This document shows, one piece after another, positions 45,007-61,942 of a stretch of 64,000 nt of DNA. Each line of letters opens with the position of its first letter. Positions within the stretch are counted from its first letter, which is position 1. The DNA comes from Bacteroidia bacterium (lineage in GTDB: Bacteria; Bacteroidota; Bacteroidia; Flavobacteriales; Flavobacteriaceae): contig JAUIIU010000003.1 of the NCBI GenBank assembly GCA_030431695.1, forward strand, positions 13,990-77,989, read 5' to 3'. Under the pieces are notes generated by a model. That model had not been told where the DNA came from, searched no databases, and was given only the letters and a program-made list of their open reading frames with translations. The position numbers were made by a program, and so were the translations under genes.

Positions 45007-45030
45007 TGTATTAAGTATTTAAAAGTTATA

Positions 45031-45597: not shown

Positions 45598-45655
45598 TTC
45601 ACGATGATTGATGATGCAAATGTATAACGTACCAATGGTTTTTTACACGCCATTT

Positions 45656-45674: not shown

Positions 45675-45785
45675 TTTCCTTTGTTTACGGGCTTTTGCAG
45701 CTAAAAGGATGGGGCAGTTTAACGAATTTATAAAAAATATGAATGGAAAGGCAGTAAGGGGAGTTCGAGTACAGCAGTCCTTTAG

Positions 45786-45813
45786 ATAAAAAAATCTGGT
45801 CTTCGACCGGATT
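45786..45813 (-). terminator. orphaned intrinsic terminator next to the tRNA-Asn 3' fragment
   Basis: On the minus strand, AAUCCGGUC-GAA-GACCAGAUU (one mismatch) is followed by U7. It begins 8 nt after the duplicated tRNA 3' segment. Confidence 0.6.
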
Positions 45814-45821
45814 CTGATTAA

Positions 45822-45838
45822 GCTCCTCCAGCTGGACT
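45822..45838. repeat. island boundary repeat (attL-like), displaced tRNA-Asn 3' end
   Basis: GCTCCTCCAGCTGGACT is identical to 61868-61884. Confidence 0.8.
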
Positions 45839-46195
45839 TCCTCCTACTCCGCCTTTGGCGGATTCGGCGGATAAACTTCTCGTCCAGATTTTTCCCATGC
45901 AAAAAGCCCCTCACTTTCGTGAGAGGCCTGTCGTCGCTTCGCTCCCCCTAATATTGTTTTGTCGAACCACTTTCATGAGGAGTTGATGAGGTTTGCCGCA
46001 ATTTATGACAACATAATGCCAACGTTCTAGTGCTCCTGTTTTATCGCAAGATGTCACCAAGCATCGAGTGGATATTCCTGTATTGTCATTAAAAATGTCA
46101 TCTTATGCCAAGTTGGCACTTAAAATCTCTATTGTTTTCACATTTTTAGTCGATTTCAGGTTTGGCAACATAATTGACACTCTAATTCTTAAAAT

Positions 46196-47167
46196 ATGTT
46201 GAATATGGCAACAAATAAACAAGAATACCTACAAACTGTACTCGAAACGCACCGCATGTCACACGTTGAAGATTTGGTGAATAAATTCAAGTCAAAGAGA
46301 GATGAAGTCAAAGACGCCTTAACCTCACATTACGGTTCACAAATCTACAGTCCATTTGATTCTGGCTCCTTCAAAAAACACACCGCTATAAACACCAAGT
46401 TTGATTTAGACGTTGTAGTACCCGTCAAGCGGGACTCATTTGACACACTCGACAAGATGTTCGATAGCTTCTATGACTTCCTCAGTGATGAATTTGGAGA
46501 GAACGCAACAGTAAGGAAACAAACCGTTTCAATCGGAATCATCTTTGAAGAAGACAGCGATGGTGACGTAATTAGTCTGGATATTGTTCCAGGGCGAGAG
46601 CTAAGTCAAGACCAATATTCCAATGATAAAAAGCTCAATCTGTTCGTGAGCAGCGACTATGGTATTTTTTCCAGTAGCACCTATATCCAAACAAATATTC
46701 AAGCCCAAATTGACCACATCAAAGCCAAAGACAACGAACGAAAAATTATTCGTCTATTGAAAATTTGGAACAATAATGACGGCAAAGAATTTAAGTCCTT
46801 CCTCTTGGAACTAATTACCATAAAAGCCTTTGATACTGAAGATATCTCCGGGAATCTATGGGAAAAACTGCAACAAGTGATGACCTATATAAAAGACAAC
46901 GTAACAAATGATAGCTTCAAATTAATTGACCCAGGAAACAGTAACAATGATTTAATGGACACTTTAACAAGTTGGGGTAGAACCAATCTCTCAAGTCGAA
47001 TGGGAACAATGCTTGATAGAATCGAGAGCAATAGCGACAATATAAAAGGGTATTTCCCGACCAATTCAGATTTTGAAGAAGAAGATAAATCCTCTAGCAG
47101 TGGCTACGGAGTAAAAACCGGAGCAGCGGCATTTTCAACACCCCCGGACAACCAACGATTTGGATAG
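46196..47167 (+). CDS. CD-NTase-like nucleotidyltransferase (CBASS cyclase)
   Basis: It has a Pol-beta NTase signature (GSFKKHTAINTKFDLDVVV), a third acidic residue in SLDIVPG, and an LLKIW helix block. The C-terminal tail ends ...NQRFG. Confidence 0.75.
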   Translation: MLNMATNKQEYLQTVLETHRMSHVEDLVNKFKSKRDEVKDALTSHYGSQIYSPFDSGSFKKHTAINTKFDLDVVVPVKRDSFDTLDKMFDSFYDFLSDEFGENATVRKQTVSIGIIFEEDSDGDVISLDIVPGRELSQDQYSNDKKLNLFVSSDYGIFSSSTYIQTNIQAQIDHIKAKDNERKIIRLLKIWNNNDGKEFKSFLLELITIKAFDTEDISGNLWEKLQQVMTYIKDNVTNDSFKLIDPGNSNNDLMDTLTSWGRTNLSSRMGTMLDRIESNSDNIKGYFPTNSDFEEEDKSSSSGYGVKTGAAAFSTPPDNQRFG

Positions 47168-48820
47168 ATGGGATTTTTGCAGGACGTAACTAAGCTCATC
47201 AGCGATATACCTTTTGTTGAAAAGGCATACGACTTTGAAGAAGAAGAACTCCTAATAAAAGGCAAAGTTAAGCTTTCCATTGAGGAGCTGCCACACCCCT
47301 TAGAATTTGATGTCGAAGTCTTTAAATGCTATCCGCTCAAGAATTATGACTCAGAATCAATAAAGTTCAAAAGCTTAGACCTTATTGAATACAAACACGT
47401 GATGGGAGATGGTTCAATTTGCGTTCATACAGCACATCATACGAATTTAAAATCCAAATTGAATTATGATTTCATCTCTCTAAAGAACTGGATTCTTAAA
47501 TACTATGTGGGCAAAGAAAAAGATGACCACTATGAGCATATTATTGTTGACGAAAAGTTAGTTCATAATCAATACTGGTCCTATCAATTTACCGACATAG
47601 AGCAATCATTTGAAAAAGGAGAGTTCGGTGAGGTAACGATAAGCCCTCTTCTTCCCATTGGAACATTTAGAGGTGCCCGTATTTCCAATCACATCATACA
47701 GAGTTTTATTAGAAATAATGGTGAGAAATTAGATTGTAAATGGAGTCAGCTTTATAAACAGTTTAATATTACCAATTCTGGGTGTTATGTTTTTATAGAG
47801 TCTCCACCTGCAAACCATGGAAAATTCATTTATACAAAATGGTCTGATTTGCAGGACCATCTCCCTCTACAATTTTTAACATTCCTACTCGAATTTCAAA
47901 AGAAGTTCATTAAAGATAGAGGGAAAATCTTTCCTTTATTTATTGGATATAATACCGATGATTCTAATATTCACTGGCAAGTAGCTTTACTAGAACTGGG
48001 GAACTTTCCTGTAATGGGTTATAGAATGCCTAGTGGAAAATGGGAAATGATACTTAAGCATGATATGGAAATTGATTGGGGCTTAACAAGGAATTCTTCA
48101 TTCGATTATTTTTTTGGAAGGGGTTCTTTTTCGAAGCACATTACTGAGAAGAAAATACTTATTATTGGTGTTGGTGCAGTCGGCAGTATGGTCGCAAAGA
48201 CTCTCACAAGATGCGGCTGCAAATTCATAGACATTGCTGACAGTGACATCAAAGAACCTGAGAACATTTGTCGTTCTGAATATCAGTTTAATTTCGGTTT
48301 GGGTGATAAGACTGAAGAACTCAGAATTATACTTGGTACTATCTCACCCTTCGTTGAAACCAACGTTGTCGACAAAGACTATTTTCAAGGGATTATTAAA
48401 CTATTCCACAAAGAGAAGGGAAGCAAATTAAATTTTGAGAAAAGCTTAAATGACTACGACTTAGTCTTTGATTGTACTACTGATAACGACTTGATGTACG
48501 CACTAGACTCTCTGGATTTGAAATGTGCTTTAATAAACCTCTCAATAACCAACTTTGCTAATGAGTTGGTCTGTGCATTCTATCCAAACATATATAATTT
48601 CGTAATGAATCAATTCAATAATGTTCTGGATAATGATACAACCGATTTATATAATCCGACTGGTTGCTGGAGTCCAACCTTCAAAGCTTCTTATAATGAC
48701 ATTGCATTGTTGGTGCACAAGGCTTTAAGTCGAATAAATAGCCTCTATGATTCAGGAGCAAGAAAGAATAATTTTGTGATAGAGGGTTCCGGGTCAGACC
48801 TAAAAGTTATCGAGTTTTGA
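47168..48820 (+). CDS. Cap2-like E2/E1 fusion protein
   Basis: The N-terminal half has an E2-like Cys (GDGSICVH). The C-terminal half is ThiF/E1-like (IIGVGAVGSMVAKTL, DSDIKEPENICRSEY) with a candidate catalytic Cys (PTGCWSPTF). It starts right after the cyclase stop. Confidence 0.8.
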   Translation: MGFLQDVTKLISDIPFVEKAYDFEEEELLIKGKVKLSIEELPHPLEFDVEVFKCYPLKNYDSESIKFKSLDLIEYKHVMGDGSICVHTAHHTNLKSKLNYDFISLKNWILKYYVGKEKDDHYEHIIVDEKLVHNQYWSYQFTDIEQSFEKGEFGEVTISPLLPIGTFRGARISNHIIQSFIRNNGEKLDCKWSQLYKQFNITNSGCYVFIESPPANHGKFIYTKWSDLQDHLPLQFLTFLLEFQKKFIKDRGKIFPLFIGYNTDDSNIHWQVALLELGNFPVMGYRMPSGKWEMILKHDMEIDWGLTRNSSFDYFFGRGSFSKHITEKKILIIGVGAVGSMVAKTLTRCGCKFIDIADSDIKEPENICRSEYQFNFGLGDKTEELRIILGTISPFVETNVVDKDYFQGIIKLFHKEKGSKLNFEKSLNDYDLVFDCTTDNDLMYALDSLDLKCALINLSITNFANELVCAFYPNIYNFVMNQFNNVLDNDTTDLYNPTGCWSPTFKASYNDIALLVHKALSRINSLYDSGARKNNFVIEGSGSDLKVIEF

Positions 48821-49281
48821 GATTCTTCAATAAACATAGAAACGTTGAACTAATAATTAGCCAAGAATTAATTGATGAAATTGGCATCGTTGGTGTTGAA
48901 CATTTCCCAAATGAATTTGGCGGTTTTTTGACGGGTAGGTACTCCGATGATTATAATACCCTGTTCATAAATGATTTCGTTCTTCCGAAAGCATCCAAAG
49001 GAAGTAGGTTTCAGTTCGTGAGACGTTCTAAAGGAATGAAGAAATTTTTCAGAAAATTATTCCAGAGCAAAAAAGAATATTATGTTGGAGAATGGCATAC
49101 ACATCCAAATGGTAGTACCCAATTTAGCAGCACTGATTTAAACGCAATGATGGAAATTGAATCAGCTCCAAGTGTAAAAATTAAGAATCCCGTGCTACTA
49201 ATTCTAAGTGTCACCAACAAAAAACTTGACAACGCCACCTTTTATATATACGACAATAAAAAACTACTACCTTATGAGTAA
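48817..49281 (+). CDS. Cap3-like JAB/JAMM isopeptidase
   Basis: It carries EFGGFL plus an exact HxHx7Sx2D motif (HTHPNGSTQFSSTD). Its TTG start overlaps the Cap2 stop (TTGA). Confidence 0.8.
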   Translation: MRFFNKHRNVELIISQELIDEIGIVGVEHFPNEFGGFLTGRYSDDYNTLFINDFVLPKASKGSRFQFVRRSKGMKKFFRKLFQSKKEYYVGEWHTHPNGSTQFSSTDLNAMMEIESAPSVKIKNPVLLILSVTNKKLDNATFYIYDNKKLLPYE

Positions 49282-50098
49282 AATAGATATAAAACTACTA
49301 TTTGCTGGACTTCAAAAGCAAATGGTCGCCCAATTGAACACGAATAGAGAATTCATTACACATCCGGGTTCAAAAGGTGATTCATTAGAGAATGCATGGA
49401 TTGAATGGCTGAGAACATATTTACCAAACAGATATAACGTTGACAAAGCGATTGTTATTGATTCTGAAGGAAATACAAGTCATCAGATGGATATAGTGAT
49501 TTATGACAATTGGTATACTCCATTTATATTTACGCAAAATGGATTTCATTATATACCTGCCGAAGGAGTATATGCTGTTTTTGAAGTAAAACCAGACATC
49601 AAGGGTAATGTTGGCGATAAAAACTACATTGAATATTCTGCTGAAAAAATTGAAAGTGTTAGGATTCTAAAAAGAAAAGCCGCTGGATTTATAAATGGTG
49701 GAGTCCCACATGGTCCGAGACCCTTAACCAAAATTATTGGTGGTATTCTTTGCAGTACGAATTCATACACTCGAACGAACAACAGTACTATTAAAACACA
49801 CATCCAAAATCAAACACAACTTAAGACTATTGATTTAGGGTGTATAGCTGATTATGGTAGTTTTTATGTCGATTATACTCCAAATAACGAAATAACTAAT
49901 CCAGGTTATAAAGCCTATTTAGATTTTTATAACGCCAGAAAATTCAAGAGCTTAAAGTTTAGCAAAGCAGATAATTCGATGGTTACTTTCTTCTTCCAGC
50001 TAACAAGATATTTACAGCAAGCTATTGGAACAATTCCAGCAATTAACTTGAAGGAATATTTGGATAGTATCGGTGAGAAACTAGATGAAGAAATTTAA
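49274..50098 (+). CDS. NucC-like restriction-endonuclease-fold effector
   Basis: It has HPGSKGDSLENAWIEWLRTYLPNRY and then MD-x30-EVK, the same spacing as the ID-x30-EAK active-site motif reported for NucC. The ATG at 49274 overlaps the Cap3 stop (ATGAGTAA). Confidence 0.65.
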   Translation: MSKIDIKLLFAGLQKQMVAQLNTNREFITHPGSKGDSLENAWIEWLRTYLPNRYNVDKAIVIDSEGNTSHQMDIVIYDNWYTPFIFTQNGFHYIPAEGVYAVFEVKPDIKGNVGDKNYIEYSAEKIESVRILKRKAAGFINGGVPHGPRPLTKIIGGILCSTNSYTRTNNSTIKTHIQNQTQLKTIDLGCIADYGSFYVDYTPNNEITNPGYKAYLDFYNARKFKSLKFSKADNSMVTFFFQLTRYLQQAIGTIPAINLKEYLDSIGEKLDEEI

Positions 50099-50148
50099 TA
50101 TTATTATTCCAATTACTTCTTTGTAAATTAGAGCATTAGACAAACAAT

Positions 50149-50469
50149 ATGGAAAAACAGATACGCTCTTTATTAATATCAAAACTTGGAGAATATCATA
50201 GTAATTTTACTGTTCCTTATTATAATGATGAGATTCTAAAGGTATTAGCCTTCAACCCAATAGAATTCGAGTGGAAAGACGACCTTGAGAATATTGGCGG
50301 TAATGTTTCATTCATATGCCTTGTAAAGGGAAAAATAAAAGGAATCACTTCCAGAAAAAGGACATACTCATTCTCCTTTTCAGGCGTCTCAGCTATAATG
50401 GAAGGAACAAAAGTTACAGACCTTAATTTGGAAAATATGAATATTACATCATATAATAGACAGGATTAA
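50149..50469 (+). CDS. hypothetical protein (106 aa)
   Basis: An ORF 50 nt downstream of the NucC-like gene. No family was recognised. Confidence 0.4.
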   Translation: MEKQIRSLLISKLGEYHSNFTVPYYNDEILKVLAFNPIEFEWKDDLENIGGNVSFICLVKGKIKGITSRKRTYSFSFSGVSAIMEGTKVTDLNLENMNITSYNRQD

Positions 50470-50484
50470 GTTCGTGATGACATT

Positions 50485-50955
50485 CTATCTATTTTCGATT
50501 AGATTTGACTTAATCCAATCAGCGTAGTACCTTAAAAAAGGTAGTAACTCGTTGGATTCAAATTTTGCCACTTGGACCACCTGACCATTACTATTTCTAG
50601 TAAACACAATCTCATCGACTAGAAAGTCATCCGTATTTGAAATTATTTCAAAGCTCCCGTGGGCTATTGAGTTACGTAAATCACGTATCAAATCTCTGAA
50701 ATTCCTGTAGCGCTTATTGATAAATGAATTAACCAAACCCATTTGCTTAAGAAGTTCCGTGGTAATGATTGGATTAGGAATATGACTAAAAACCGTCTCC
50801 TTAGGAATCACAATAATACCCAATAAGCAATTCAATAGGAGCGTATAATTATACTGTTGCTCGAAAGGGTATTTATGAAGAATTGATTCGTATTGTGCTA
50901 TTAGCTTCATTGTTCTGTCAATGAAATCATGCTCTATATCTTTATAATTTCCCAT
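50485..50955 (-). CDS. HEPN-motif protein (Abi-like)
   Basis: A 156-aa all-helical-looking protein with an Rx4H motif in RDLRNSIAHGSF, as in the RNxxAH of AbiD/F-type HEPN domains. Confidence 0.55.
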   Translation of the reverse strand: MGNYKDIEHDFIDRTMKLIAQYESILHKYPFEQQYNYTLLLNCLLGIIVIPKETVFSHIPNPIITTELLKQMGLVNSFINKRYRNFRDLIRDLRNSIAHGSFEIISNTDDFLVDEIVFTRNSNGQVVQVAKFESNELLPFLRYYADWIKSNLIENR

Positions 50956-51047
50956 TTATATTGCTTTATCTTAAAACTTAAATAACCATTTCAAAGATAA
51001 AGCAATTAGTTTACGGAATAATAAACACAAAGTGATTCCCTCATCTA

Positions 51048-51203
51048 TTAATTCGAAGCCATGTGCCGCTGCCAGCTCTTCACATCATACATGGACTCGA
51101 TAATTCGTTTTGCTGCCGATGGTGATGTAGCCTCACACGAAACTGAAATATAATGTCCCCCGGATTTGAGCCAAATAGCTCCTTTGTAAGTTTGTGTTGT
51201 CAT
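51048..51203 (-). CDS. possible small ORF (51 aa) coupled to the resolvase
   Basis: The ATG lies 2 nt after the resolvase stop. It encodes MTTQTYKGAIWLKSGGHYISVSCEATSPSAAKRIIESMYDVKSWQRHMASN. It falls below the ORF-track cutoff and is unverified. Confidence 0.3.
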   Translation of the reverse strand: MTTQTYKGAIWLKSGGHYISVSCEATSPSAAKRIIESMYDVKSWQRHMASN

Positions 51204-51205
51204 AA

Positions 51206-51808
51206 TTATAATGTTTGCTCTTTTAAAGCTCTTTTAACCCTCTGGGCTGTTCCTAGACTCACACCACCCAATGCAGCTGCACGCCTCAAGGATTCACCAT
51301 TTTCAAGCTCGGTGGCTACTTTCTTGTACTTCTTCAAGAATTCTTCAGTAGACATACGGGAGCCGTATAAGCGACCATTATAAACCCCTTTGGCTTTGGC
51401 TATCTCGATGCCTTGACGCTGCCTCTCAAGCATATTATTACGCTCCATCTCACTCACGTTACCCAGTACCGACACAATCATCTTGAATATTGGGTTCTGT
51501 TTTCCGTCAACCATAGAAAACATACCTATATTTTCCACATAAAGCTTGACGCTGTTTTCGGTTAGGAATTCGCAGACGGTTAGGATGTCTAGTATGTTTC
51601 TTCCAATACGGTCAATTGATAAGACATGTACTTCATCGATTCTACCTTGTTTAATCCTGTCAATCAATTTCTTGCCCTGAGGTCTTTCGAAAAACGATAT
51701 TGCACCACTAATCCTATCTACATACACCTTATCGAATTCAGACTCATTCTTCTCCTGTCTGGAAGTATTTTGTTCTACGGTTGATACCCTAACGTATTTG
51801 ACTTTCAT
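51206..51808 (-). CDS. small serine recombinase (resolvase/invertase family)
   Basis: It starts MKVKYVRVSTVEQNTSRQ with the catalytic Ser motif and has a C-terminal HTH (GGVSLGTAQRV). The ATG at 51808 is preferred. Confidence 0.85.
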   Translation of the reverse strand: MKVKYVRVSTVEQNTSRQEKNESEFDKVYVDRISGAISFFERPQGKKLIDRIKQGRIDEVHVLSIDRIGRNILDILTVCEFLTENSVKLYVENIGMFSMVDGKQNPIFKMIVSVLGNVSEMERNNMLERQRQGIEIAKAKGVYNGRLYGSRMSTEEFLKKYKKVATELENGESLRRAAALGGVSLGTAQRVKRALKEQTL

Positions 51809-51834
51809 AATTTCATTTCTATACATCAAATATA

Positions 51835-51866
51835 GTGTATTATATTAGGGTGGCAAAATAATACAC
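51835..51866. promoter_or_regulatory. res-like recombinase binding site
   Basis: GTGTATTAT-n14-ATAATACAC is a 9-bp inverted repeat 27 nt upstream of the resolvase start. Related half-sites occur at 51924-51938 (ATACAC-ttc-GTGTAT) and 52003-52010. Confidence 0.5.
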
Positions 51867-52235
51867 ATAAAAACCAGGTATTTAGCTGAAATTACTGTGC
51901 CCAAATCTTGTATGCTCCAATTAATACACTTCGTGTATATACAGTCCCTATTTCACTCTCCGAAATTTGCTGGAAAAATTTTGAACACCTCCGACCTTTT
52001 GTATATACACATCGCATTTCGGTCAATTGAAAGGGCGGATACGGGAACGAGATTTTTCAATTGTGTTTATAGATAGCTTTTGAAGACAGGTCGGACGGTC
52101 ATAGCCGTTCGCATTCAAAAACACCAAGTCAACCGAAGTATAGACTGTGACTCACGTGCTTGGGTAGTGTAAAGAGGTACCTTAAAAGCAGCCTTTTCGT
52201 TGATTCTTGCATATTTATAGACAAACAATTTTATC

Positions 52236-52397
52236 ATGGCAAAACTACCAACAACTGAAAACACCGAAATCTTTATAATGAGAATGACCCCAGCCTTGAA
52301 ACAGAAGCTGAATGAACTAGCTAAGAGAAGTAAATATGGGGGTAATGCATCTTCTGCAGTAAGGGTTTTGATTGAGTCAGCGTATCTAGATTTTTGA
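52236..52397 (+). CDS. ribbon-helix-helix (CopG/MobC-like) small protein, 53 aa
   Basis: It encodes MAKLPTTENTEIFIMRMTPALKQKLNELAKRSKYGGNASSAVRVLIESAYLDF, with a beta-strand then two helices, the typical RHH pattern. It is preferred over the antisense 96-aa ORF. Confidence 0.55.
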   Translation: MAKLPTTENTEIFIMRMTPALKQKLNELAKRSKYGGNASSAVRVLIESAYLDF

Positions 52398-52854
52398 GCT
52401 ACCAAAAAAAACTCAAATTTATAATTCTCATTATTAGATGGTTACAAATAATTTCGAATATTTTTTCGACTTTTTTAATGTATAGACATATTTATATATA
52501 ACAACCGTAAACAGTTTTATGATGGTCAGCATCACGACCTAGGTCAAATGAAGGTGGTGTACATATTCGGATTGCAAAGGGCAACATTAAGCGGGCGGAG
52601 GCTCAGGCACTTAAGTTGGTAATCTGGTGTGTGGTTGATAGGAACTTAGCCGATTCAATCTGAAAGGGTACCGCCAAGGTATTGGACCCGAATGCCCCAC
52701 GTAGTATGTCGGTTTGGTTCTGCGAAGAACGAGTTCTAGGTACTACGGTCAGAACAGTTCCTATATAAAAATGTAGGAGAGATTTTTTGGAACTAAGTAC
52801 GATGGATGATAGGACCACTTAACGGTGGATGTATGGAAGTAGACATAAATCATC

Positions 52855-52890
52855 TCTATACCTTTTTAGGGGGTATGGGGGTGATTTTTT
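52855..52890 (+). terminator. possible intrinsic terminator ending a non-coding transcript
   Basis: The stem UCUAUACC / GGUAUGGG includes 2 G-U pairs and has a 9-nt loop. T6 occurs at 52885-52890 after a short spacer. Confidence 0.35.
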
Positions 52891-53102
52891 GTTTCATTGG
52901 ACTCCTGGAACCTCCTTCCGTTGGATAGGAAGAGAGACATATAAATTATTACCTAGGGAACATAAAAACTACAATAGATGGGTATAGAAAGTATATTAGA
53001 ATCAACTAACTGAAATACCAAGAACTTATAGGTATTTCGACTGGTCTTTACTGCTTTTGTCTATAATTTCTTCTGTTATAATATTGATTTTATATTCATT
53101 AG

Positions 53103-53849
53103 TCATATAACTTGTATCCACTTATTTGAACTTATAACCGGAGTATATTCTACAAATTCACCTCTCTGAGATTCAAAGTCTTCATCATCAACACTGAAAC
53201 ATTCGACATTAACCTTCAATTTATCACATACGGACCTAATTTGCCTACTCAAAGATTCTTTATCCATTCTATTGAGCCAATAATTCCAATACTTTTTATT
53301 AGCGACCAACAATAATTTAGGTGATTCATGATTTGCCATGAAGCTCCATTCAAACTTTTTAAATCCATCGTGGTGAACATCATGTCTATCTAAAGCATCA
53401 TGGTTGCAACGGATATAGTAGTAATACATCAATAATTCAATAACACCATAAATTGGACGGTTTGATTTGGAACTATTGCTGTATTTCAATTCACAAATTA
53501 CAGGTACATCGTCTGATGTCATTCCAATAAGGTCTAGACATAGTCGTCTAGAACTTTTGTTTAGAACTACTGGAAGTTCGAAATCCAACCATTGAACTTC
53601 TGTTTTCGTTCTTCCATGGTCAATCACTGCTTTCTGGCAATTAAAAATTGCTCTTTGGAGTGCTTTCTCTGTTATGTCTTTTATTATAATAGACGGAGTC
53701 CCTGGATTGGTTGGATGTTCAATTGACTCATTATCTTCATTTTCAAGTGTTGCTTTTAACTTTCCTAAATCATTCCAATCAGAGTTATCAATATAATCAA
53801 TTATGTGTCCTTTAAATTGTTCATTTGTAATTCTCGAAATCATAATCAA
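53103..53849 (-). CDS. PD-(D/E)xK nuclease-fold protein, uncharacterised
   Basis: CLDLIGMTSDDVPVICELKY gives D-x12-ExK preceded by a beta-strand. It lies 32 nt downstream of hsdR on the same strand. Confidence 0.5.
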   Translation of the reverse strand: MIMISRITNEQFKGHIIDYIDNSDWNDLGKLKATLENEDNESIEHPTNPGTPSIIIKDITEKALQRAIFNCQKAVIDHGRTKTEVQWLDFELPVVLNKSSRRLCLDLIGMTSDDVPVICELKYSNSSKSNRPIYGVIELLMYYYYIRCNHDALDRHDVHHDGFKKFEWSFMANHESPKLLLVANKKYWNYWLNRMDKESLSRQIRSVCDKLKVNVECFSVDDEDFESQRGEFVEYTPVISSNKWIQVI

Positions 53850-53881
53850 CCTGTTACGAATAAATTCTCATAATCCTTTTA

Positions 53882-56236
53882 CTAACTCGCCTCACCACCG
53901 TAGAGGTGCTCTTGGAATCCTATGAAAGTCTCTCTTATGGATTTGATATCACCAAGCTCGTGTTTGGCGTCAGCTAAGGCTTTGTATTTAAGTTCTAATA
54001 GGTCTGGAAGTTTCGCATCATCCAACTCGTCCACACCTTCTTTAACGTATTGCTCCAACACGAAGTTCAGGAACTCTTGTTGCTTTGGGTTGTAATCACC
54101 CAATTTGATTTTAGCCTTATCGGCTCGGTCTAATCTTGGAACCATGCTTTTATGATAAGCTACGTAGTTAAGCACATCGTATAAGTCGCTTTCCTCTCCA
54201 TGTACCAGCTTACGTAAATCTTCAAGCTGTGCATGGGTATATCCTTTCTCATTCAGTTCTTCCAATAGCTTCTTTCTGGTAGACGGTAGACTCCAAAGCT
54301 TTCTAAGCTCATCTTCACTTCGGAATAGTGCTGGTAAATCTCCAAACAATTGGTCCAAGAACTCTTGAGCAGATATCGGTGTACCATGCGGACTCCAGAA
54401 GGAAGTCTTTATCATGCTGTCGATTTCTCTGACCTTGTTATCGGACAACTTAACCTTTATCATCTTCTTGGGTGGTTCATCACAAAAACAGGGGTCATTG
54501 TCACAAATCTCACAGTAGGTTGGCTCATGTATCTCATTTGGCTTGCCGTCCCCCCTGGTGTATTCTCTTGGTGGTTCTGGTTCAATCGGTTCACCATCCC
54601 ACTCTGGGTCTTTGAAATGGTCATGGGCATTGACGAAATCGAAAACGGTGAAATACTCCTTGCCGTCAAATAGACGTGTTCCACGTCCCACAATTTGTTT
54701 AAACTCCACCATCGACTTCACAGGTCGTAGGAGCACTATGTTCCTCAATTCAGGGGCATCAACTCCAGTGCTCAGTTTCCTCGATGTTGTCAAGATAGTG
54801 GGGATACTCTTTTCGTTATCCTGAAAATCCCGCAGGTGCTTTTCTCCAATCTTTCCGTCATCTGCCGTTACCCTATGGCAGTAATTCACGTTATTACTGT
54901 CTGAGTATTGATTGATGAGGTCCCGAATCGCAGCCGCATGAACTTGTGTCGCACAGAACACCAAAGTCTTCTGATTCTGGTTAATGATATTCAAGAATGT
55001 TTTGACCCTAAACTCTTCCCGTGCTTTGATTTCGATAATACGATTGAAATCTTCCTCAGTATAGGTGCGTCCTACCTCAACCTCGCCTGTTTCGACATCA
55101 TCATCTTCGGTATATTCATACTCATCAATTGTTGTTGTGATTTCCTTGACCTTGAAGGGTGTAAGGAATCCATCATTGATACCTTCCTTGAGTGCATAGA
55201 TGTAAACCGGGTCACCAAAATACTTGTAGGTATCACCATTAACGTCCCGTTTTGGTGTAGCGGTCAGACCGAGTTGAACCGCTGGACTGAAATACTCCAT
55301 GATTGCTCTCCAAGAGCTTTCATCATTAGCACCACCACGGTGACACTCATCAATAATTATAAAGTCAAAGAAGTCTTTAGGGTATTCTCCAAAGTTGGGA
55401 GAATCATCTGGACCAGACATGAAGGTCTGGAAAATGGTAAAGAAAATATTGCCATTTTTTGGAACCTTGCCTCGCTTTCTGATTTCATCTGGTGCGATAC
55501 GGACCAGAGCGTCCTCTTCAAAGGCACTAAAGGAATTGAATGCTTGGTCGGCAAGGATGTTTCTATCGGCTAAGAACAGTATTCTGGGGCTACGCTGCCC
55601 ATCTCGTCTTAGGTTCCACTTGGCATGGAACAACTTCCATGAAATTTGGAAAGCGATAGCCGTCTTACCCGTACCAGTAGCTAAAGTCAGCAGGATTCGG
55701 TCTTTTTTATCAGCAACAGCCTCTAGCACCTTGGTAATGGCATTGTCTTGGTAGTAACGAGCCTGCCAAGTACCCCCACGGTCCTCAAATGGTACCGAAA
55801 ATAACCGTTCTTTCCAATCAGCAATTTCTTTTTTATACTCTTCAATCGGTGGTGGATAAGTCTTTTCCCAAAGTTCATCGGGTGTAGGGTATCGGGCAAC
55901 ATCACCCTCAACACCCTCATCCATATCAACCTCATAAATCTGTAACCCATTAGTGGCATAGGTGTATCTGATATTCAATCGGTCAGCATAATCCTTAGCC
56001 TGCCCTAGACCATCGGTGTAATAAGCATCACGCTTTTTGGCTTCTATTACCGCAAGCTTGCGATTCTTGTAAATGAGCACATAATCGGCTCTGAGTTGTG
56101 AGTAGTTCCTAACCCCAGGCTTCTCTTTGTTTGTAATTGGAAACTCCTTATACACCCTAGAACCTTCCACATCACCCCAACCTGCTTCTCGAAGAGCTGG
56201 TTCAATTAGATGATATTGGGTTTGGGATTCGTTCAT
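53882..56236 (-). CDS. hsdR: type I restriction enzyme R subunit
   Basis: It has the N-terminal HsdR nuclease motif (ADYVLIY...VIEAKK), helicase motif I (ATGTGKT), a DECH box and a C-terminal EcoEI-type region. Confidence 0.92.
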   Translation of the reverse strand: MNESQTQYHLIEPALREAGWGDVEGSRVYKEFPITNKEKPGVRNYSQLRADYVLIYKNRKLAVIEAKKRDAYYTDGLGQAKDYADRLNIRYTYATNGLQIYEVDMDEGVEGDVARYPTPDELWEKTYPPPIEEYKKEIADWKERLFSVPFEDRGGTWQARYYQDNAITKVLEAVADKKDRILLTLATGTGKTAIAFQISWKLFHAKWNLRRDGQRSPRILFLADRNILADQAFNSFSAFEEDALVRIAPDEIRKRGKVPKNGNIFFTIFQTFMSGPDDSPNFGEYPKDFFDFIIIDECHRGGANDESSWRAIMEYFSPAVQLGLTATPKRDVNGDTYKYFGDPVYIYALKEGINDGFLTPFKVKEITTTIDEYEYTEDDDVETGEVEVGRTYTEEDFNRIIEIKAREEFRVKTFLNIINQNQKTLVFCATQVHAAAIRDLINQYSDSNNVNYCHRVTADDGKIGEKHLRDFQDNEKSIPTILTTSRKLSTGVDAPELRNIVLLRPVKSMVEFKQIVGRGTRLFDGKEYFTVFDFVNAHDHFKDPEWDGEPIEPEPPREYTRGDGKPNEIHEPTYCEICDNDPCFCDEPPKKMIKVKLSDNKVREIDSMIKTSFWSPHGTPISAQEFLDQLFGDLPALFRSEDELRKLWSLPSTRKKLLEELNEKGYTHAQLEDLRKLVHGEESDLYDVLNYVAYHKSMVPRLDRADKAKIKLGDYNPKQQEFLNFVLEQYVKEGVDELDDAKLPDLLELKYKALADAKHELGDIKSIRETFIGFQEHLYGGEAS

Positions 56237-57060
56237 TTAGTGGATATTAAATAGTTTTTGACCAGAGTCCAAATCTCATTCCTCACCTCATTCGACATCG
56301 CCTGGGTATAGTATGGTACGCTCCCGAACGGATATCCAAATAAAGTTCCCGTATATCCAAAAGCTCTGCGATTGGTGGTTTCGTCAAATACCTCAATTCG
56401 TTTTCGCTGCTTCCAATCATCACCTAAGCGATGAGGTTTCCCTATCATCAAAATCCATGGTGGGGTGATTTTACGGATGTACTCTTCAAAAAGTGGTCTA
56501 CTAAGGTCTATCGCATTATCGGGTAGGCTATTTACATCTGGGCTTCTAAAAAAGCACGCATTGGTGTAATTTAGGTTTTCAATTTCCTCCCCAAAATGCC
56601 AATCAATGTAGGTTCGGCAATGATTGATAAATGACCAATCCCTTTCCTTATACTTTGGTGGGTGAGTGGACTGTGCGTTGATGTCATTTCCACCCCAGTT
56701 TATACCAAAGAAAACCCCCGCACCTTTTTGTATAGGGGTATCGCAGATGGCATAATTCCAGTTTTTTCCTTCAAGCCTTAATCCATTACTGGGGTCTTCA
56801 AAAACAGTAGCGGTCTTGTCAAGTAAATCGTAAAAGATAATGTCCTCATCATTTAGGTGGTCCAATTTCAACTCAAGGGACTTGACTTCGCTTCTTGATA
56901 TGCCCCGCTCCTTCAATAGCCTAGAAACATCATCGCCAATATCTTTTAAAGCAAGGTCATAGGTGTTATTGTGGGTTGTTCCAATATGCCCAAGTAAAAC
57001 TGGAATTTCCTTGCCATTCTTTAGCTTGACATTATACGTGTAGCGGGTTAATTGACTCAC
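56233..57060 (-). CDS. uncharacterised protein embedded between hsdS and hsdR, with weak UDG-superfamily-like motif order
   Basis: Its GTG start overlaps the hsdS stop (GTGA), and its stop overlaps the hsdR start (ATGA). The motifs VFFGINWGG, YTNACFFRSP, WILMIGK and GSVPYYT occur in the order seen in MUG/TDG-type glycosylases. This is a by-eye comparison only. Confidence 0.6.
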   Translation of the reverse strand: MSQLTRYTYNVKLKNGKEIPVLLGHIGTTHNNTYDLALKDIGDDVSRLLKERGISRSEVKSLELKLDHLNDEDIIFYDLLDKTATVFEDPSNGLRLEGKNWNYAICDTPIQKGAGVFFGINWGGNDINAQSTHPPKYKERDWSFINHCRTYIDWHFGEEIENLNYTNACFFRSPDVNSLPDNAIDLSRPLFEEYIRKITPPWILMIGKPHRLGDDWKQRKRIEVFDETTNRRAFGYTGTLFGYPFGSVPYYTQAMSNEVRNEIWTLVKNYLISTK

Positions 57061-58259
57061 ACCTCAACCTCCTTTCCTGTTAACTCACCTGCCAAAGCTT
57101 TTTGTAGGATGGATTTTTTGAGTTCTCGTATATTTTCAATCCTTTTTTTATTAAAATCTATAGAATTATGAGTCAACTCATGCATCTTATGATGCAGTTC
57201 TACGAACTTAGTTTGCTCTTGTATAGTTGGACATGGAACCTTTATTGACTTAAGTATTTTAACTCCTGGCACATTTGGTTGCGCTGCTCCACCAGCCGCC
57301 CTAAAAATCAAATCTTGAAATATTTTACTCCTAATCCAAATAATAAGAAAATCATTCAACATTTGATTTGGTTTAGTTGACAGCTTAAGTAATGCTTGAT
57401 TAATTATTCCAGCTGGTGCATTCGGTGGCACCTCTGAAATGCGTCCAAGAGTAACCCCAGAACAACTCATCAGCAAATCCCCAGACTTAACTTTAAACCT
57501 CTGCATTTCTTGAAATTTTTCCTCATCTATAAAATATCTCAAGGCATCATAATCATTATGAATAGCTTGCTTCTGTTCATATACCGCATATCCCGATTCA
57601 ACAAACATTGATTTTTTTAAGCTTCCACCAAATGGTCCACGTGTGAAGTCGCATATCTCACCCCAATTGACTTCATGCCAGTTGGCACTTTGAATAGTTT
57701 TGAAGGTCCAATTCTCATACAACTCCATTGCGTTTTCAATATTACGCTCAATATTGGCTTTCGCTTTGTCAATAGCTTCAAAGGCTTGGTCCAAAACGCC
57801 TACAATTTGCTCTTGTTCAGCAACTGGGGGAATTGGAATTTCGAAGTCAAATATATCCGCCTTGCTGAATCCATTTTGCGCAGACCTATCCGAAACATTC
57901 GCCAACGGTTTTTGAAAAAGAGGTGATGTCAAGTAGTATAGGTAATACCTTCTAACCAGTAATTCCTCATTAGGTGTGACTTTCATCAAAGCAACATTAT
58001 ATGCGCCCGATTTGCCCGTACATATTTTCCCGACTGACGCACCATACCTTCCTAACAAAATGTCATTGTGTTGACAGACCCTGTTTTTTTCAGATATAGG
58101 AATGTAAGCTGCCTTATTATCACTTTTAAAATCCCGAATTTGTAACAATCGAACATAACCTTCTTGCGGCTCAGACTTGAAGGTAGATTTCGGTGGTTGA
58201 CTTCCGCCTTGCATGTCAGTCACCTCCCCCAATTTACTATTTATCCAACCTTCTCTCAT
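57057..58259 (-). CDS. hsdS: type I R-M specificity subunit
   Basis: It has two target-recognition halves separated by conserved coiled-coil spacers (PPVAEQEQIV, TIQEQTKFV), at 400 aa. Confidence 0.9.
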   Translation of the reverse strand: MREGWINSKLGEVTDMQGGSQPPKSTFKSEPQEGYVRLLQIRDFKSDNKAAYIPISEKNRVCQHNDILLGRYGASVGKICTGKSGAYNVALMKVTPNEELLVRRYYLYYLTSPLFQKPLANVSDRSAQNGFSKADIFDFEIPIPPVAEQEQIVGVLDQAFEAIDKAKANIERNIENAMELYENWTFKTIQSANWHEVNWGEICDFTRGPFGGSLKKSMFVESGYAVYEQKQAIHNDYDALRYFIDEEKFQEMQRFKVKSGDLLMSCSGVTLGRISEVPPNAPAGIINQALLKLSTKPNQMLNDFLIIWIRSKIFQDLIFRAAGGAAQPNVPGVKILKSIKVPCPTIQEQTKFVELHHKMHELTHNSIDFNKKRIENIRELKKSILQKALAGELTGKEVEV

Positions 58260-59710
58260 ATCAATTCTTTAATTGATTCGAGAATTGAGTTGGTCTCTGA
58301 GTTTAATCTCTCCATTTCAGACAATATCTCTTCAGGGACTCTTAACGGTGCTTCCTCTGGCATGTTCGGATTCTTAACGCTAAGGTCAATGGTCTTAACA
58401 TCCACATTTGACACTTTCAAGTTCCAAGAACGTTCGGTTTCGGGTTTGTCTTTATAGCTATCCAAAAACTCTTTAAGGTCCTCATCGTTTAATGGACTGG
58501 TTTTACCTAAGCTGCGTTCTGGATTCAATTGATAATACCAGATATTCTTAGTAGGCTCCCCTTTCTGGAAAAATAGCACTATTGTCTTTACCCCGGTGCT
58601 GGTAAATGCTCCCTGAGGTAGCTCAAGAACTGTAAACAGGTCACAGCTTTCAATTAAGTATTCTCTCAAGGCAATAGCAGCATTGTCTGTATTGCTTAGG
58701 AAAGTGTTCTTGATTACGATAGCAGCACGTCCACCCGCTTTGAGGTTCTTAATGAAGTGCTGCAAGAATAGGAAAGCGGTTTCACCTGTCTTGATATCAA
58801 AATTCTGCTGTACTTCTTTACGTTCCTTACCACCAAAGGGTGGATTGGCAAGAATTACATGGTAACGGTTTTTCTCTTGGACATCCCTAATGTTTTCAGC
58901 TAGCGTATTGGTGTGGATGATATTTGGAGCCTCGATACCGTGCAATATCATATTCATGATACCAATCACATACGCTAAGTTCTTTTTTTCCTTACCAAAG
59001 AGAGTATTCTCCTGCAAGGTGATGAGGTTGTCGGTGGTCTTTTCCATACGCTCGTACATGTAATCATACGCCTCGCAGAGAAAGCCACAAGAACCCGCTG
59101 CACCGTCATAAACCTTCTCACCTATCTTTGGGTCGATTACGTCTATCATCGCTCTAATAAGCGGTCTTGGCGTATAATACTGCCCTCCATTGCGCCCAGC
59201 ATTACCCATATTCTTAATCTTGGACTCATACAGGTCAGAAAGCTCGTGCTTATCCTTGGATGAACGGAATGGTAAAGCGTCTGCATACTCCAGTATGTCT
59301 CTTAGGATATACCCGCTTTGAATCTTGTTCTTAAGCTCAGAGAAGATTTCACCAATCTTGTATTCGATGGTTTGCGGGTTTTCTGCCGTTTGCTTGAATC
59401 CTGACAGGTATGGAAAAAGCTTCTGGTCTACGAATTCGATGAGGTCTGGACCTGTCATCGCTTTGTGGTGGTCAAGTTGGTTGTCTGTACCCTTGGGCAT
59501 CGCCCACACTTCCCATCGGTATTCGGGGGCGATGATATGATGGTATTCCAGACCCTTGAGTTCGGCTTCATCTCGTTTATCTTGCTCAAGGTCGTCCAGA
59601 TATTTTAGGAACAACACCCACGAGGTCTGACCTATATAGTCTAACTCGCTATCGGCACCAGCATCTTTGTATAAGAGGTCATCTATGTTTTTAAATGTGT
59701 TTTCGAACAT
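58256..59710 (-). CDS. hsdM: type I R-M N6-adenine DNA methyltransferase subunit
   Basis: It has an N-terminal HsdM domain, motif I (DGAAGSCGFL) and motif IV (NPPFGG). Confidence 0.92.
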   Translation of the reverse strand: MFENTFKNIDDLLYKDAGADSELDYIGQTSWVLFLKYLDDLEQDKRDEAELKGLEYHHIIAPEYRWEVWAMPKGTDNQLDHHKAMTGPDLIEFVDQKLFPYLSGFKQTAENPQTIEYKIGEIFSELKNKIQSGYILRDILEYADALPFRSSKDKHELSDLYESKIKNMGNAGRNGGQYYTPRPLIRAMIDVIDPKIGEKVYDGAAGSCGFLCEAYDYMYERMEKTTDNLITLQENTLFGKEKKNLAYVIGIMNMILHGIEAPNIIHTNTLAENIRDVQEKNRYHVILANPPFGGKERKEVQQNFDIKTGETAFLFLQHFIKNLKAGGRAAIVIKNTFLSNTDNAAIALREYLIESCDLFTVLELPQGAFTSTGVKTIVLFFQKGEPTKNIWYYQLNPERSLGKTSPLNDEDLKEFLDSYKDKPETERSWNLKVSNVDVKTIDLSVKNPNMPEEAPLRVPEEILSEMERLNSETNSILESIKELI

Positions 59711-59739
59711 CTATTCAATATCGTATTGGTTCAATCCTG

Positions 59740-59756
59740 CAAATAACAAATTGAAG
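59740..59756. repeat. 17-nt direct repeat, copy 1 (CAAATAACAAATTGAAG)
   Basis: Identical to 59961-59977. It lies 30 nt upstream of the hsdM start. Confidence 0.7.
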
Positions 59757-59960
59757 CTATTAATCAAATTTTAAGTGAGCGGGGAGTAACGATATAAAGA
59801 TATAATAAAGCAGGAAAATTCCCCGGTTTTTGGTGTTTAGATAAAATTTTTTGAAAAAAGTTGGGAAAAAACTTGTATTTCGGTGCCCTTGTGTAGTATA
59901 ATTGCTCAAACAAGACTTAGGAGCCACTCTTTGGCAATCTTGAAATAACATACTTCAGCC

Positions 59961-59977
59961 CAAATAACAAATTGAAG
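59961..59977. repeat. 17-nt direct repeat, copy 2 (CAAATAACAAATTGAAG)
   Basis: Identical to 59740-59756. Confidence 0.7.
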
Positions 59978-60227
59978 ATTGGGGCAAAATTTTATGACTA
60001 ATTAGCACCCCGCTAAAAGTCAATTCTTATTTAAACACAGTTTAAATTTTTCAGCCTGGAAAGCGGTCACGTTTTCGAGTGATTTGCACCTGGCATTTTG
60101 GTGTTCAGTTGAGCACCCTACAACTCAATGTATACTACAAATACTTGAGTTCCTGTCGACAGACGGGAAACAATAACACACCTCATCACTCCCAGAAAAA
60201 ATCGGAGGAACAGAGTGATAAGCGAAA

Positions 60228-60359
60228 ATGCTAAGTATTACAAAATGTAAAATGATTTTAAATCGAAATGGAATAAAATACACTAACGAAGAGGTGGAGC
60301 AAATTAGGCTCTTCCTTTATAACATCGCTGAAATTCAGCAAAAACAAAATATTATATAA
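60228..60359 (+). CDS. possible small ORF (43 aa) directly upstream of the integrase
   Basis: It encodes MLSITKCKMILNRNGIKYTNEEVEQIRLFLYNIAEIQQKQNII, and its stop lies 2 nt before the integrase ATG. It is unverified. Confidence 0.25.
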   Translation: MLSITKCKMILNRNGIKYTNEEVEQIRLFLYNIAEIQQKQNII

Positions 60360-60361
60360 TC

Positions 60362-61903
60362 ATGAAAACTATTTTATACACCAGGGTTAGCACTGATGAA
60401 CAAGCTAACAAAGGACATGGTAGGGACTACCAAAAAGAAGTCCTAAGAAGGTACTGCCAAGTAAATAACTATGAAGTGATTGCAGAATTCGAAGAAGACC
60501 ACTCAGCAAAAAATTTTAATCGTCCTGAATGGAAAAAACTTGAGCTATTTGTAAAAGCCAACAAAAAATCGATAGACAAGGTCATATTTACGAAATGGGA
60601 CAGGTTTTCAAGAGACATATACAATGCTCTTGACAAAATAAAATCCTTTCAAAAATGGGGAATTGAATTAAATGCAGCTGAACAGACTTTGGACCTGTCC
60701 AATCCAGACAATAAACTCATGTTATCGGTTTATCTAACGGTGCCGGAGGTAGAGAATGATAAAATCTCCCAGAGAACAAGAAGCGGGATGTATAAAGCTG
60801 CGAAGGATGGAGCTTGGATTGGTCGAGTTCCATATGGATATGAACGTCATCATTTTGGCAAGTTTGCATCATTGAAACCCAACGAAGAATCTAAATTAGT
60901 GCAGGATGCTTTCTATGAAGTATCTCTGGGCTTACTACCATGTGAAGAGATAAGACGGAAATTCGAGCAAAGGGGTTATAGCGGGGTTAAACAGTCTTTT
61001 TTAAACCTCTTGCGAAATAAGGTATACCTTGGTATGACTAAGGTTCCCAAATATGATAACGATGAGGCGTTTTGGATTGATGGTTTGCATAATGCAATCA
61101 TTGATGTGCCTACCTTCAATAAGGTCCAAGCTATACTCGAAGGAAAAAATAGGGCTGCTAAACCTCCATCTATAATCAACGAAGCAATGCCCTTAAGAGG
61201 TTTTCTTGAGTGTGAATACTGTAAGGGTAATTTAACGGGCAGTATTTCAAAAGGTAATGGGGGGCAGTATGGGTATTATCACTGCCGAAGAAATTGTAAG
61301 AATCGCATTCCCACAACTTTGGTCCATGAGATGTTCGATGAATCGATTCTAAGCGATTTCATCGTAAATGATAATGTATTAGAACTATACAAAGAAGTTC
61401 TATTGGATATTCAAAAAACCAAACTAGGGAGTAAGTCCAAAACTGAGAACAACTCAAAGAAAATGATTGACGAACTTTCCAAAAAAATTGAGAGTGCTGA
61501 AGACAAATACATCAATGGGGAACTAAGCCAGGATGTGTTTAAAAGAATCATAAGTAGATATGAAAAAGAAAGAATGTCCTTGAAGGCTGATTACACAGAA
61601 ATTAAGGAATCCAAAGGTCTTTCAGTCAAAGCCATAGAAAAGGCTGTGGACGGGCTTAAGAACATCCCTAAACTCTATAAAAACGGTTCGTATGACACAA
61701 AGGTTCAACTACTTGGTTTGATAATCCCCAAAAAACTGATTATTTCAAAAAATGGATGTCGAACCAAGGAAAAGAATGTGGTTGTGGAGCTTCTCACTAG
61801 GGTTAATAAGGTCTCCCAGAGGGCGGGCACAAAAAAAGCCATCATTTCTGACGGCTTGTCTAATATGGCTCCTCCAGCTGGACTCGAACCAGCGACACCC
61901 TGA
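60362..61903 (+). CDS. large serine recombinase (island integrase candidate)
   Basis: It has an N-terminal resolvase domain (YTRVSTDEQ), a recombinase domain, a zinc ribbon (CEYCKGNLTG...YYHCRRNC) and a coiled-coil region. The last 12 codons are tRNA-Asn sequence. Confidence 0.88.
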   Translation: MKTILYTRVSTDEQANKGHGRDYQKEVLRRYCQVNNYEVIAEFEEDHSAKNFNRPEWKKLELFVKANKKSIDKVIFTKWDRFSRDIYNALDKIKSFQKWGIELNAAEQTLDLSNPDNKLMLSVYLTVPEVENDKISQRTRSGMYKAAKDGAWIGRVPYGYERHHFGKFASLKPNEESKLVQDAFYEVSLGLLPCEEIRRKFEQRGYSGVKQSFLNLLRNKVYLGMTKVPKYDNDEAFWIDGLHNAIIDVPTFNKVQAILEGKNRAAKPPSIINEAMPLRGFLECEYCKGNLTGSISKGNGGQYGYYHCRRNCKNRIPTTLVHEMFDESILSDFIVNDNVLELYKEVLLDIQKTKLGSKSKTENNSKKMIDELSKKIESAEDKYINGELSQDVFKRIISRYEKERMSLKADYTEIKESKGLSVKAIEKAVDGLKNIPKLYKNGSYDTKVQLLGLIIPKKLIISKNGCRTKEKNVVVELLTRVNKVSQRAGTKKAIISDGLSNMAPPAGLEPATP

Positions 61904-61942
61904 TTAACAGTCAGGTGCTCTAACCAACTGAGCTATGGAGGA
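61866..61942 (-). tRNA. tRNA-Asn (anticodon GTT), CCA encoded
   Basis: The hand-folded cloverleaf is TCCTCCA/TGGAGGA acceptor, GCTC/GAGC D-stem, CCTGA-CTGTTAA-TCAGG anticodon arm and GCTGG-TTCGAGT-CCAGC T-arm. Confidence 0.92.
61868..61884. repeat. island boundary repeat (attR-like) inside tRNA-Asn
   Basis: GCTCCTCCAGCTGGACT is identical to 45822-45838. It covers tRNA positions from the T-loop to the first C of the CCA. Confidence 0.8.

Follow-up and report, generated by a model that had tools for sequence, protein, structure and literature searches.

A defence island at the 3' end of a Flavobacteriaceae tRNA-Asn gene and its large serine recombinase, whose reading frame crosses the attachment site

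Described systems and the tRNA-Asn island

According to Hudson et al. 2015, serine-family integrases were not known to target tRNA genes (PMC4383910). The closest published precedent for the element described here is DsiB, a CcrB-like serine integrase of the Dehalococcoides ssrA (tmRNA) islands, whose gene always overlaps attL at its 3' end (PMC3146451); McMurdie et al. 2011 asked whether DsiB is complete or fully functional only on the circle (PMC3146451). Here we analysed a stretch of 64,000 nucleotides from a Bacteroidia bacterium of the family Flavobacteriaceae (GenBank assembly GCA_030431695.1, contig JAUIIU010000003.1; hereafter the window). It carries a 15.9-kb integrative defence island that was very probably placed at the 3' tip of a tRNA-Asn gene by the large serine recombinase (LSR) encoded on the island itself.

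The similarity to DsiB concerns the size of the enzyme (LSRs of ~500-540 aa), the integrative island, the overlap with the attachment (att) site and a stop codon located outside the element. However, DsiB targets a tmRNA gene in Chloroflexota, while the LSR of the window targets tRNA-Asn; DsiB belongs to a fixed six-gene module with the adjacent small recombinase DsiA, while the window has a 43-aa partner and a small invertase 9 kb away; and the DsiB islands are without a published att-arm or motif analysis. The marks of a DsiB-type island, i.e., a tmRNA target and a dsiB-dsiA module beside attL, were not found in the window. Phage-type LSRs (Listeria A118/LI, phiC31, Bxb1, SPbeta SprA) share the domain order, a short common core and a zinc-ribbon-domain motif that is 5 bp nearer the centre in attB (PMC3783163), and their small, fold-diverse directionality factors acting at the junction of the second DNA-binding domain (DBD2) and the coiled coil (PMC12286644) have a candidate counterpart here. 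They differ in their protein-coding or intergenic targets and in an attP that lies outside the int gene.

An attP within the integrase gene, with integration altering or splitting the protein, is described for Mx8 IntP/IntX and SSV1-type integrases (as cited in PMC4383910). These enzymes are tyrosine recombinases whose chemistry is unrelated and whose att identities are long, and integration of the SSV type splits the gene in two, in contrast to the short tail swap in the window. Islander-type islands and the Riemerella 10K island (PMC6764341) share with our locus the tRNA 3' end as the target, the displaced tRNA fragment, the restored tRNA, and defence and other cargo in Bacteroidota hosts, but their enzyme is a tyrosine integrase and their direct repeats are long (53 bp in Riemerella, PMC6764341), where the window has an LSR and an 8-bp core. 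Of the features of Islander-type islands, the window shows an intact tRNA on one side and a displaced fragment of it on the other; the tyrosine recombinase gene of such islands is missing from it.

Papers dealing with tRNA-targeting serine integrases of Bacteroidota did not turn up in our literature search, and a serine-integrase element with a tRNA target, an attP in its own gene and a large family of relatives is undescribed in the literature searched. The type II integrative and conjugative elements of Elizabethkingia at tRNA-Leu(CAA), reported mostly without an integrase and with serine recombinases in a few cases (10.1101/402107), may belong to the same LSR family and have been overlooked as such. 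Tools that assume tRNA genes to be targeted by tyrosine recombinases only would miss or mis-assign such islands.

Attachment sites and tRNA overlap in the LSR family

The gene adjacent to the right-hand att site (for coordinates of all features, see Table 1) does encode, as the first-pass annotation had stated, a 513-aa LSR, with the Pfam domains Resolvase, Recombinase and Zn_ribbon_recom. The Resolvase match (5.6e-28, residues 4-152) corresponds to the N-terminal catalytic domain, in which the YxRVS motif holds the serine nucleophile; the Recombinase domain (DBD1) was matched at 1.2e-8, Zn_ribbon_recom at 24.5 bits (slightly below its cut-off of 25.3) and the PHROG integrase family at 5e-76. 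Residues R8, S10, T11 and D12 of the YxRVS-motif region, which the first rows carry, and the zinc-ribbon cysteines C284, C287 and C308 are invariant in alignments of 30 and 70 sequences, C312 is nearly so, and all family-invariant residues are present in the enzyme of the window, which is single-copy in its genome. A sequence search of the PDB gave matches limited to the catalytic domain, the best of them at 1e-19. The AlphaFold2 (AF2) model of a relative in its attP form (P0006) is that of a canonical LSR with a mean predicted local distance difference test (pLDDT) score of 83.7; strands at 282-317 are followed by long helices at 337-384 and 390-416, i.e., DBD2 with an inserted coiled coil, and residues 482-512 form a disordered linker (pLDDT < 50).

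The LSR frame enters the antisense strand of tRNA-Asn by 38 nt and ends there with the codons for APPAGLEPATP and a stop. Since the open reading frame (ORF) ends inside the antisense tRNA, its last 12 codons and the stop codon are tRNA antisense sequence, and the earlier reading of a frame running through a 17-nt repeat into tRNA-derived codons was right. This 17-mer (GCTCCTCCAGCTGGACT) occurs in the window exactly only at 45822-45838 and 61868-61884, with 0.01 matches expected in shuffles even if two mismatches are allowed. In a genome of the same genus (G001; relatives' genomes, loci, contigs and proteins carry our own numbers), the flank 45789-45821 directly abuts an identical tRNA-Asn gene. 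The flank being joined straight to the tRNA in this empty site, the segment between the two 17-mers is a true insertion. The tRNA-Asn is 98.7-100% identical to its counterpart in five same-genus genomes; longer alignments, which include the LSR-derived flank, gave 96.5% for G004 and 88.4% for G005. For G002, the identity is about 82-90%.

The attP form was seen directly in relatives. L102, a metagenome contig of 12,750 bp, has a 141-nt terminal overlap equal to the assembly k-mer, which makes it a circle of 12.6 kb, and its LSR frame continues into the P' arm, i.e., across the attP junction. L101 is a circular permutation of the island of the window (LSR, P' arm, DarT/Macro cargo, small invertase, hsdR/S/M). 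In L101, L102 and the tandem copy L022, the LSR 3' end is joined via GCTCCCCC to TAATATTGTTTTGTCGAACC, and the counterpart of this arm in the window begins at 45949 rather than at 45839. The first-pass annotation had joined the frame at 45838; the frame does stay open there for 48 more codons, but this is not the junction used. As the left end of the element, position 45838 was rejected, as all attP-form relatives (L101, L102, L022) join at the GCTCC core and none there. Sequence comparison assigns 45839-45940 to a probable remnant of an earlier insertion, with the 17-mer as its outer boundary and not as a working attL; modules of the same type are also found beside tRNA-Asn in G002, G003 and G005. 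The repeat proper to the present element is an 8-bp core only.

This common core of attP and attB is GCTCCYCC. The T/C difference at its position 6 travels with the right-hand arm in each product, and strand exchange is therefore located inside GCTCC. The minus strand of the P arm forms a 9-bp hairpin (-14.2 kcal/mol, z -4.35) with a T-run right after the tRNA, giving a terminator-like site at 61857-61836; the native tRNA-Asn gene of G001 has no encoded CCA. The hairpin and T-run indicate that the element supplies a replacement tRNA terminator together with the encoded CCA. On the other side, seven elements share the P' arm GCTCCCCCT(A/G)ATAT(T/A)GTTTTGTCGAACC; three of the seven, from further Flavobacteriaceae genomes, are plain attL sites preceded by the native terminator. 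The exact P' arm pattern had 3 matches in 401 family genomes, all of them useful attL sites, a count too low for a census because the exact pattern is too strict. A search of the 20 kb next to tRNA-Asn in six relatives, tolerating up to 5 mismatches, gave no P' arm, the far end of the G004 island lying beyond this reach. On contig CAZWSP010000003.1 of an Antarcticibacterium metagenome-assembled genome, two same-orientation LSR copies (L021 and L022), identical over the 455 residues compared, lie ~25 kb apart; one of them enters a tRNA-type tail at the contig end, the other the P' arm, an arrangement suggestive of two elements in tandem at a single tRNA.

The 8-mer TCGAACCA, which is the antisense reading of the tRNA T-loop, begins in the B' arm at +17 (counted from the first core base), and an identical 8-mer begins at +22 (+22..29) in the P' arm, where it is kept in all seven arms. 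In the tRNA-Leu(CAA) subfamily, TCGAAC likewise lies at +17 from GTAC in an attR (L040) and at +22 in an attP-like form (L041). The sites therefore combine a short common core with an outer motif that is 5 bp nearer the centre in attB, this shift being measurable on the right-hand arms only. Working on the Listeria integrase, Rutherford et al. 2013 showed the zinc-ribbon-domain motif to be 5 bp nearer the centre in attB than in attP (PMC3783163), and this shift is how the Listeria integrase distinguishes attP from attB (PMC3783163). In the family studied here, the zinc-ribbon domain probably reads the T-loop motif. The 10-bp palindrome TCCAGCTGGA, previously suggested as a dimer-binding core, is indeed present inside the 17-nt repeat; it is, however, ordinary tRNA T-stem/acceptor sequence. 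Its place is between the core and the T-loop motif, right of the crossover; neither attP nor the other tRNA targets of the LSR family contain it, and it was rejected as a core.

The read-through into tRNA sequence was followed in the 120 nearest database homologues (about 40-66% identity, mostly 513-520 aa). By a simple tail pattern, 111 of them have tRNA-antisense tails, typically APPLGLEPRTL, APPAGLEPATL or VPGAGVEPARFPTGV, which are antisense T-loop and acceptor sequence; a few, including attP forms, end differently (APPNIVLSNQFNEELMRFASLSEI and similar). At the genome level, 80 loci of relatives with 33-61% identity were compared; in 59 of these an antisense tRNA lies under the end of the LSR ORF, usually with an overlap of 35-50 nt, and most of the remaining loci are contig-end cuts, tRNA-fragment ends or attP-like forms. 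The hosts belong to Flavobacteriales, Cytophagales, Chitinophagales, Sphingobacteriales and Bacteroidales, and the 59 overlapping loci cover 16 tRNA species. Nearly all homologues run into a tRNA instead of ending well before the att repeat, an outcome that speaks against a fortuitous read-through; the read-through is a family trait across Bacteroidota. In a tree calculated with the tails left out, the LSR of the window falls into a well-supported tRNA-Asn clade, and targets cluster yet switch often (35 changes versus 52.8 in shuffles). A T-loop common to tRNAs would explain how the family has moved among at least 16 tRNA species. With such simple site rules, i.e., a core of 8 bp and a 5-bp displacement of the T-loop motif, the family would be a ready supply of serine integrases for which nearly every bacterium offers natural landing pads.

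From these data we propose the following course of integration. The attP lies inside the last LSR codons, with the P arm KKAIISDGLSNM, the core and a P' arm continuing the frame as a 26-residue tail; attB would consist of the tRNA discriminator, acceptor end and T-arm. Strand exchange between attP and attB within GCTCC would rebuild the tRNA, add the encoded CCA and the terminator, and swap the natural tail of the protein for 8 residues read from the tRNA, converting the 531-aa form to the 513-aa form. The zinc-ribbon domain would tell attB, with its motif 5 bp closer to the core, from its attP mimic, and excision would probably require a 43-aa protein as a directionality factor bound at the base of the coiled coil. 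That the LSR of the window catalyses these steps we infer from the anatomy of the locus and its relatives.

Table 1. Features of the island, its attachment sites and the target tRNA gene (positions in the window)
Feature	Position	Strand	Basis
Native tRNA-downstream flank with original weak terminator hairpin	45786..45821	-	adjoins tRNA in G001
Displaced 17-nt tRNA-Asn 3' fragment, probable outer limit of older scar	45822..45838		repeat search, relatives
Probable scar of earlier insertion, 102 nt	45839..45940		resembles LSR 3' end; own minus-strand hairpin and T-run
attL common core GCTCCCCC of present element	45941..45948		attP-form relatives
Present integrative element, 15,927 bp	45946..61872		core comparison with relatives
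P' arm (about 45949-45970), then detached LSR coding tail	45949..46030	+	seven elements
Detached putative coding tail of excised-form LSR, NIVLSNHFHEELMRFAAIYDNIMPTF and stop	45950-46030	+	frame joined at core
Type II CBASS: cyclase, E1-E2/Cap2, JAB/Cap3, NucC-type endonuclease effector	46196..50098	+	PADLOC
Small invertase-type serine recombinase, 207 aa, cargo/accessory	51206..51829	-	domain/PHROG searches
Type I restriction-modification: hsdR, one unknown ORF, hsdS, hsdM	53882..59710	-	domain searches
Conserved 43-aa ORF, candidate recombination directionality factor/accessory protein	60228..60359	+	HMM (hidden Markov model), complex model
LSR (integrase), integrated form, 513 aa	60362..61903	+	Pfam, PHROG, relative's fold
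P arm of attP/attR, last LSR codons KKAIISDGLSNM	61830..61867		also minus-strand tRNA terminator
tRNA-Asn(GTT), intact, 3' end rebuilt by element with encoded CCA	61866..61942	-	ARAGORN; relatives compared
attR common core GCTCCTCC	61868..61875		crossover within GCTCC (61868-61872)
B' arm = tRNA T-arm, TCGAACCA at +17..24 from first core base	61876..61895		sequence

C-terminal tails, the 43-residue neighbour and alternative explanations

Joined at the core, the frame of the LSR gives a protein of 531 aa that ends APP-NIVLSNHFHEELMRFAAIYDNIMPTF, with a 26-residue tail beginning NIVLSNHFHEELMRFA, whereas the integrated 513-aa form ends APP-AGLEPATP. The C-terminus does therefore differ between the integrated and the excised state, as had been predicted, with the excised-form tail lying in a frame other than that read after 45838. 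Among the seven elements, DNA identity over the first 7 tail codons is 97%, this stretch being the binding arm. In codons 8-19, identity is 0.78, 0.86 and 0.54 by codon position, the residues are kept and the ratio of nonsynonymous to synonymous substitution rates (dN/dS) is about 0.5; after codon 19, identity falls to 0.37. In all seven elements the frame stays open for 18-30 codons past the core. These patterns are modest evidence that the excised-form tail is translated and selected. The AF2 fold speaks, as a model, neither for nor against a role of the tail.

Two nucleotides ahead of the LSR start ends an ORF of 43 aa. In 48 of 82 loci, an HMM of this ORF detected a homologue immediately ahead of the LSR, with the family motif CKKILNKNG..Y(T/S)DEE..IR..LY..AEI; neither Pfam nor PHROG has a family for it, and these databases gave nothing usable for four unknown ORFs of the island either. 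A complex model of the 43-aa protein with the full LSR reached a score of 0.69, compared to 0.02 for the best of three controls, and passed a mark that 58 of 80 solved complexes attain, compared with 2 of 110 mismatched pairs. Agreement between the runs is at least 94% of contacts, the partner has a pLDDT of at least 81, and the modelled contacts on the LSR are residues 336-350, where the first coiled-coil helix begins, and the stretches 424-453 and 473-484. For verified directionality factors, binding to the DBD2-coiled-coil junction has been reported (PMC12286644). The chances that the 43-aa protein is a directionality factor are about balanced, and it is a new candidate that can be tested.

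The first-pass annotation had favoured the LSR over a tyrosine integrase as the integrase of this tRNA-targeting island, and the overlap across the family together with the attP junction in the LSR gene bears this out. According to the competing explanation, a tyrosine integrase, acting in trans or since lost, used the 17-nt identity, and the LSR is a passenger invertase or resolvase. A 17-nt direct repeat of a tRNA is the classic signature of tyrosine integrases, and the island contains a second, small serine recombinase. As had been noted, the island itself is free of tyrosine recombinases, with no PF00589 match among its ORFs of at least 70 aa; a six-frame PF00589 search of the whole assembly, in line with the earlier advice to look in the rest of the genome for a trans-acting enzyme, revealed three, all of them on contigs other than that of the LSR (C2, C14 and C100). 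We regard this explanation as highly improbable, as the 17-mer limits the older scar and not the present element, relatives of the LSR sit at tRNA ends in 59 of the 80 loci, a circular contig has the attP junction within the LSR gene, and the core has just 8 bp along with the 5-bp motif shift of LSRs. One of the three tyrosine recombinase genes (contig C100, 16381-16878) is located less than 3 kb from tRNA-like matches (17447-17503 and 19469-19519) and may mark a separate classical tRNA island.

If the LSR is the integrase, the meaning of the tail swap can be read in two ways. It may be a neutral by-product: the P arm, the terminator and the bases restoring the tRNA must adjoin, and both tails would be dispensable. 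We give this explanation slightly less than an even chance. It agrees with the predicted disorder of the linker 482-512, whose sequence doubles as terminator and DNA site, and with the LSR of G004, which is only 35% identical to that of the window yet has nearly the same last 33 nt, suggesting constraint at the DNA level; on the other hand, the third positions of codons 8-19 vary with the residues kept, beyond the 24-nt DNA site, and in seven of seven elements another 18-30 codons remain open past the core. The other possibility, which extends the proposal of LSR-driven integration, is that the swap is a switch: the 531-aa form would be competent for integration and the 513-aa form biased to excision or inactive, so that the element senses its own state via its own C-terminus. 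Conservation of the tail as coding sequence in seven elements, a similar (F/Y)xEEL motif in the tail of the tRNA-Leu subfamily and the family-wide retention of attP in the ORF are in favour of it. The same idea was raised for DsiB by McMurdie et al. 2011 (PMC3146451), and the C-terminus of Mx8 IntP is reportedly altered upon integration (Tojo et al. 1996, as cited in PMC4383910). Nevertheless, the tail is modelled with low confidence and without a docking site, integrated-form tails range freely from 8 to >40 residues depending on the tRNA target, the 43-aa protein is at hand as a separate candidate directionality factor, and known LSRs do without such a tail; we consider the switch rather unlikely. 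Equally doubtful is the wider proposal that a T-loop-reading LSR family of Bacteroidota hops among tRNAs and senses its integration state through the tail swap, from a conserved helix in the free circle to a tRNA-coded stub in the chromosome, and that this sensor helps to set directionality together with the 43-aa partner. In any case, the family is a clean test case for a recombinase sensing its own integration state by means of its tail.

Several points weigh against the proposal that the LSR placed the island as a mobile element and that its tail and small partner have a role in this. The B arm of attL is the older scar and not native flank; the comparison of P and P' arms gave inconsistent spacings and at best a loose symmetry, and the central dinucleotide was not fixed by it. 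No transfer genes that would account for movement from cell to cell were found on the element, and the element could be fixed in this strain. The dN/dS of about 0.5 comes from 12 codons of 7 related sequences and is weak, and in the AF2 model of P0006 the tail helix (pLDDT about 40-50) is undocked and follows a linker below 50. The complex with the 43-aa protein is a prediction made with our own alignments and a rough calibration, and some blind neighbour pairs also pass.

Cargo, older scars and neighbouring segments

The LSR family is common across Bacteroidota and delivers defence systems to a tRNA hot spot, in the window a complete type II cyclic-oligonucleotide-based antiphage signalling system (CBASS) and a type I restriction-modification system. 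PADLOC matched the CBASS cyclase at 8e-84, E1-E2 at 5e-209, JAB at 4e-50 and the NucC-type effector at 2e-90; the latter is labelled DUF6602 by Pfam. A HEPN gene is further cargo of the element. In L101, DarT/Macro occupies the place that CBASS has in the window, and this end of the element is therefore a slot for swappable cargo. The intergenic region between hsdM and the LSR contains an exact 17-nt direct repeat, CAAATAACAAATTGAAG, at 59740-59756 and 59961-59977; part of this region is conserved in L101, and a regulatory role is possible.

Small invertase-type recombinases of 205-207 aa are encoded in the window, in L101 (3676-4299) and in L102 (6224-6841). A place as core partner of the DsiA/CcrA type is not supported for this protein: the three sequences are mutually only 33-37% identical, and the 20 kb examined of the island in G004 gave no such gene. 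Candidate roles are multimer resolution, an inversion switch or that of a passenger.

In relatives, too, this tRNA-Asn gene is a much-used site. The G004 LSR mentioned above reads into the same tRNA-Asn, with a CBASS-like operon 15 kb off. Its island (L019) has two LSR-like genes ~2 kb apart (15250-16416 and 18399-19940), which are 23% and 35% identical to the enzyme of the window, the tRNA-proximal one carrying the near-identical last 33 nt. In G002, G003 and G005, one or more modules of ~100 nt lie between tRNA fragments. Such modules are located at 45839-45940 in the window, at 19552-19897 in L018 (G002), at 15792-15936 in L017 (G005) and at 653-714 in L016 (G003), and each of them, flanked by tRNA 3' fragments, contains the motif GATAAACTTCTCG as well as two hairpins, one small and one terminator-like. 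Their appearance suggests a stack of scars left by serine-integrase elements or, possibly, miniature non-autonomous derivatives.

To the left, the island adjoins a second variable segment of 5.3 kb (40586-45881) with two CAAX-protease-like genes and a gene for a helix-turn-helix-DUF4870 protein. This segment is absent from G005 and G003, in which the gene ending near 40585 abuts the tRNA-proximal module. A second tRNA gene of the window, tRNA-Arg(CCT), is located at 26455-26527 on the minus strand.

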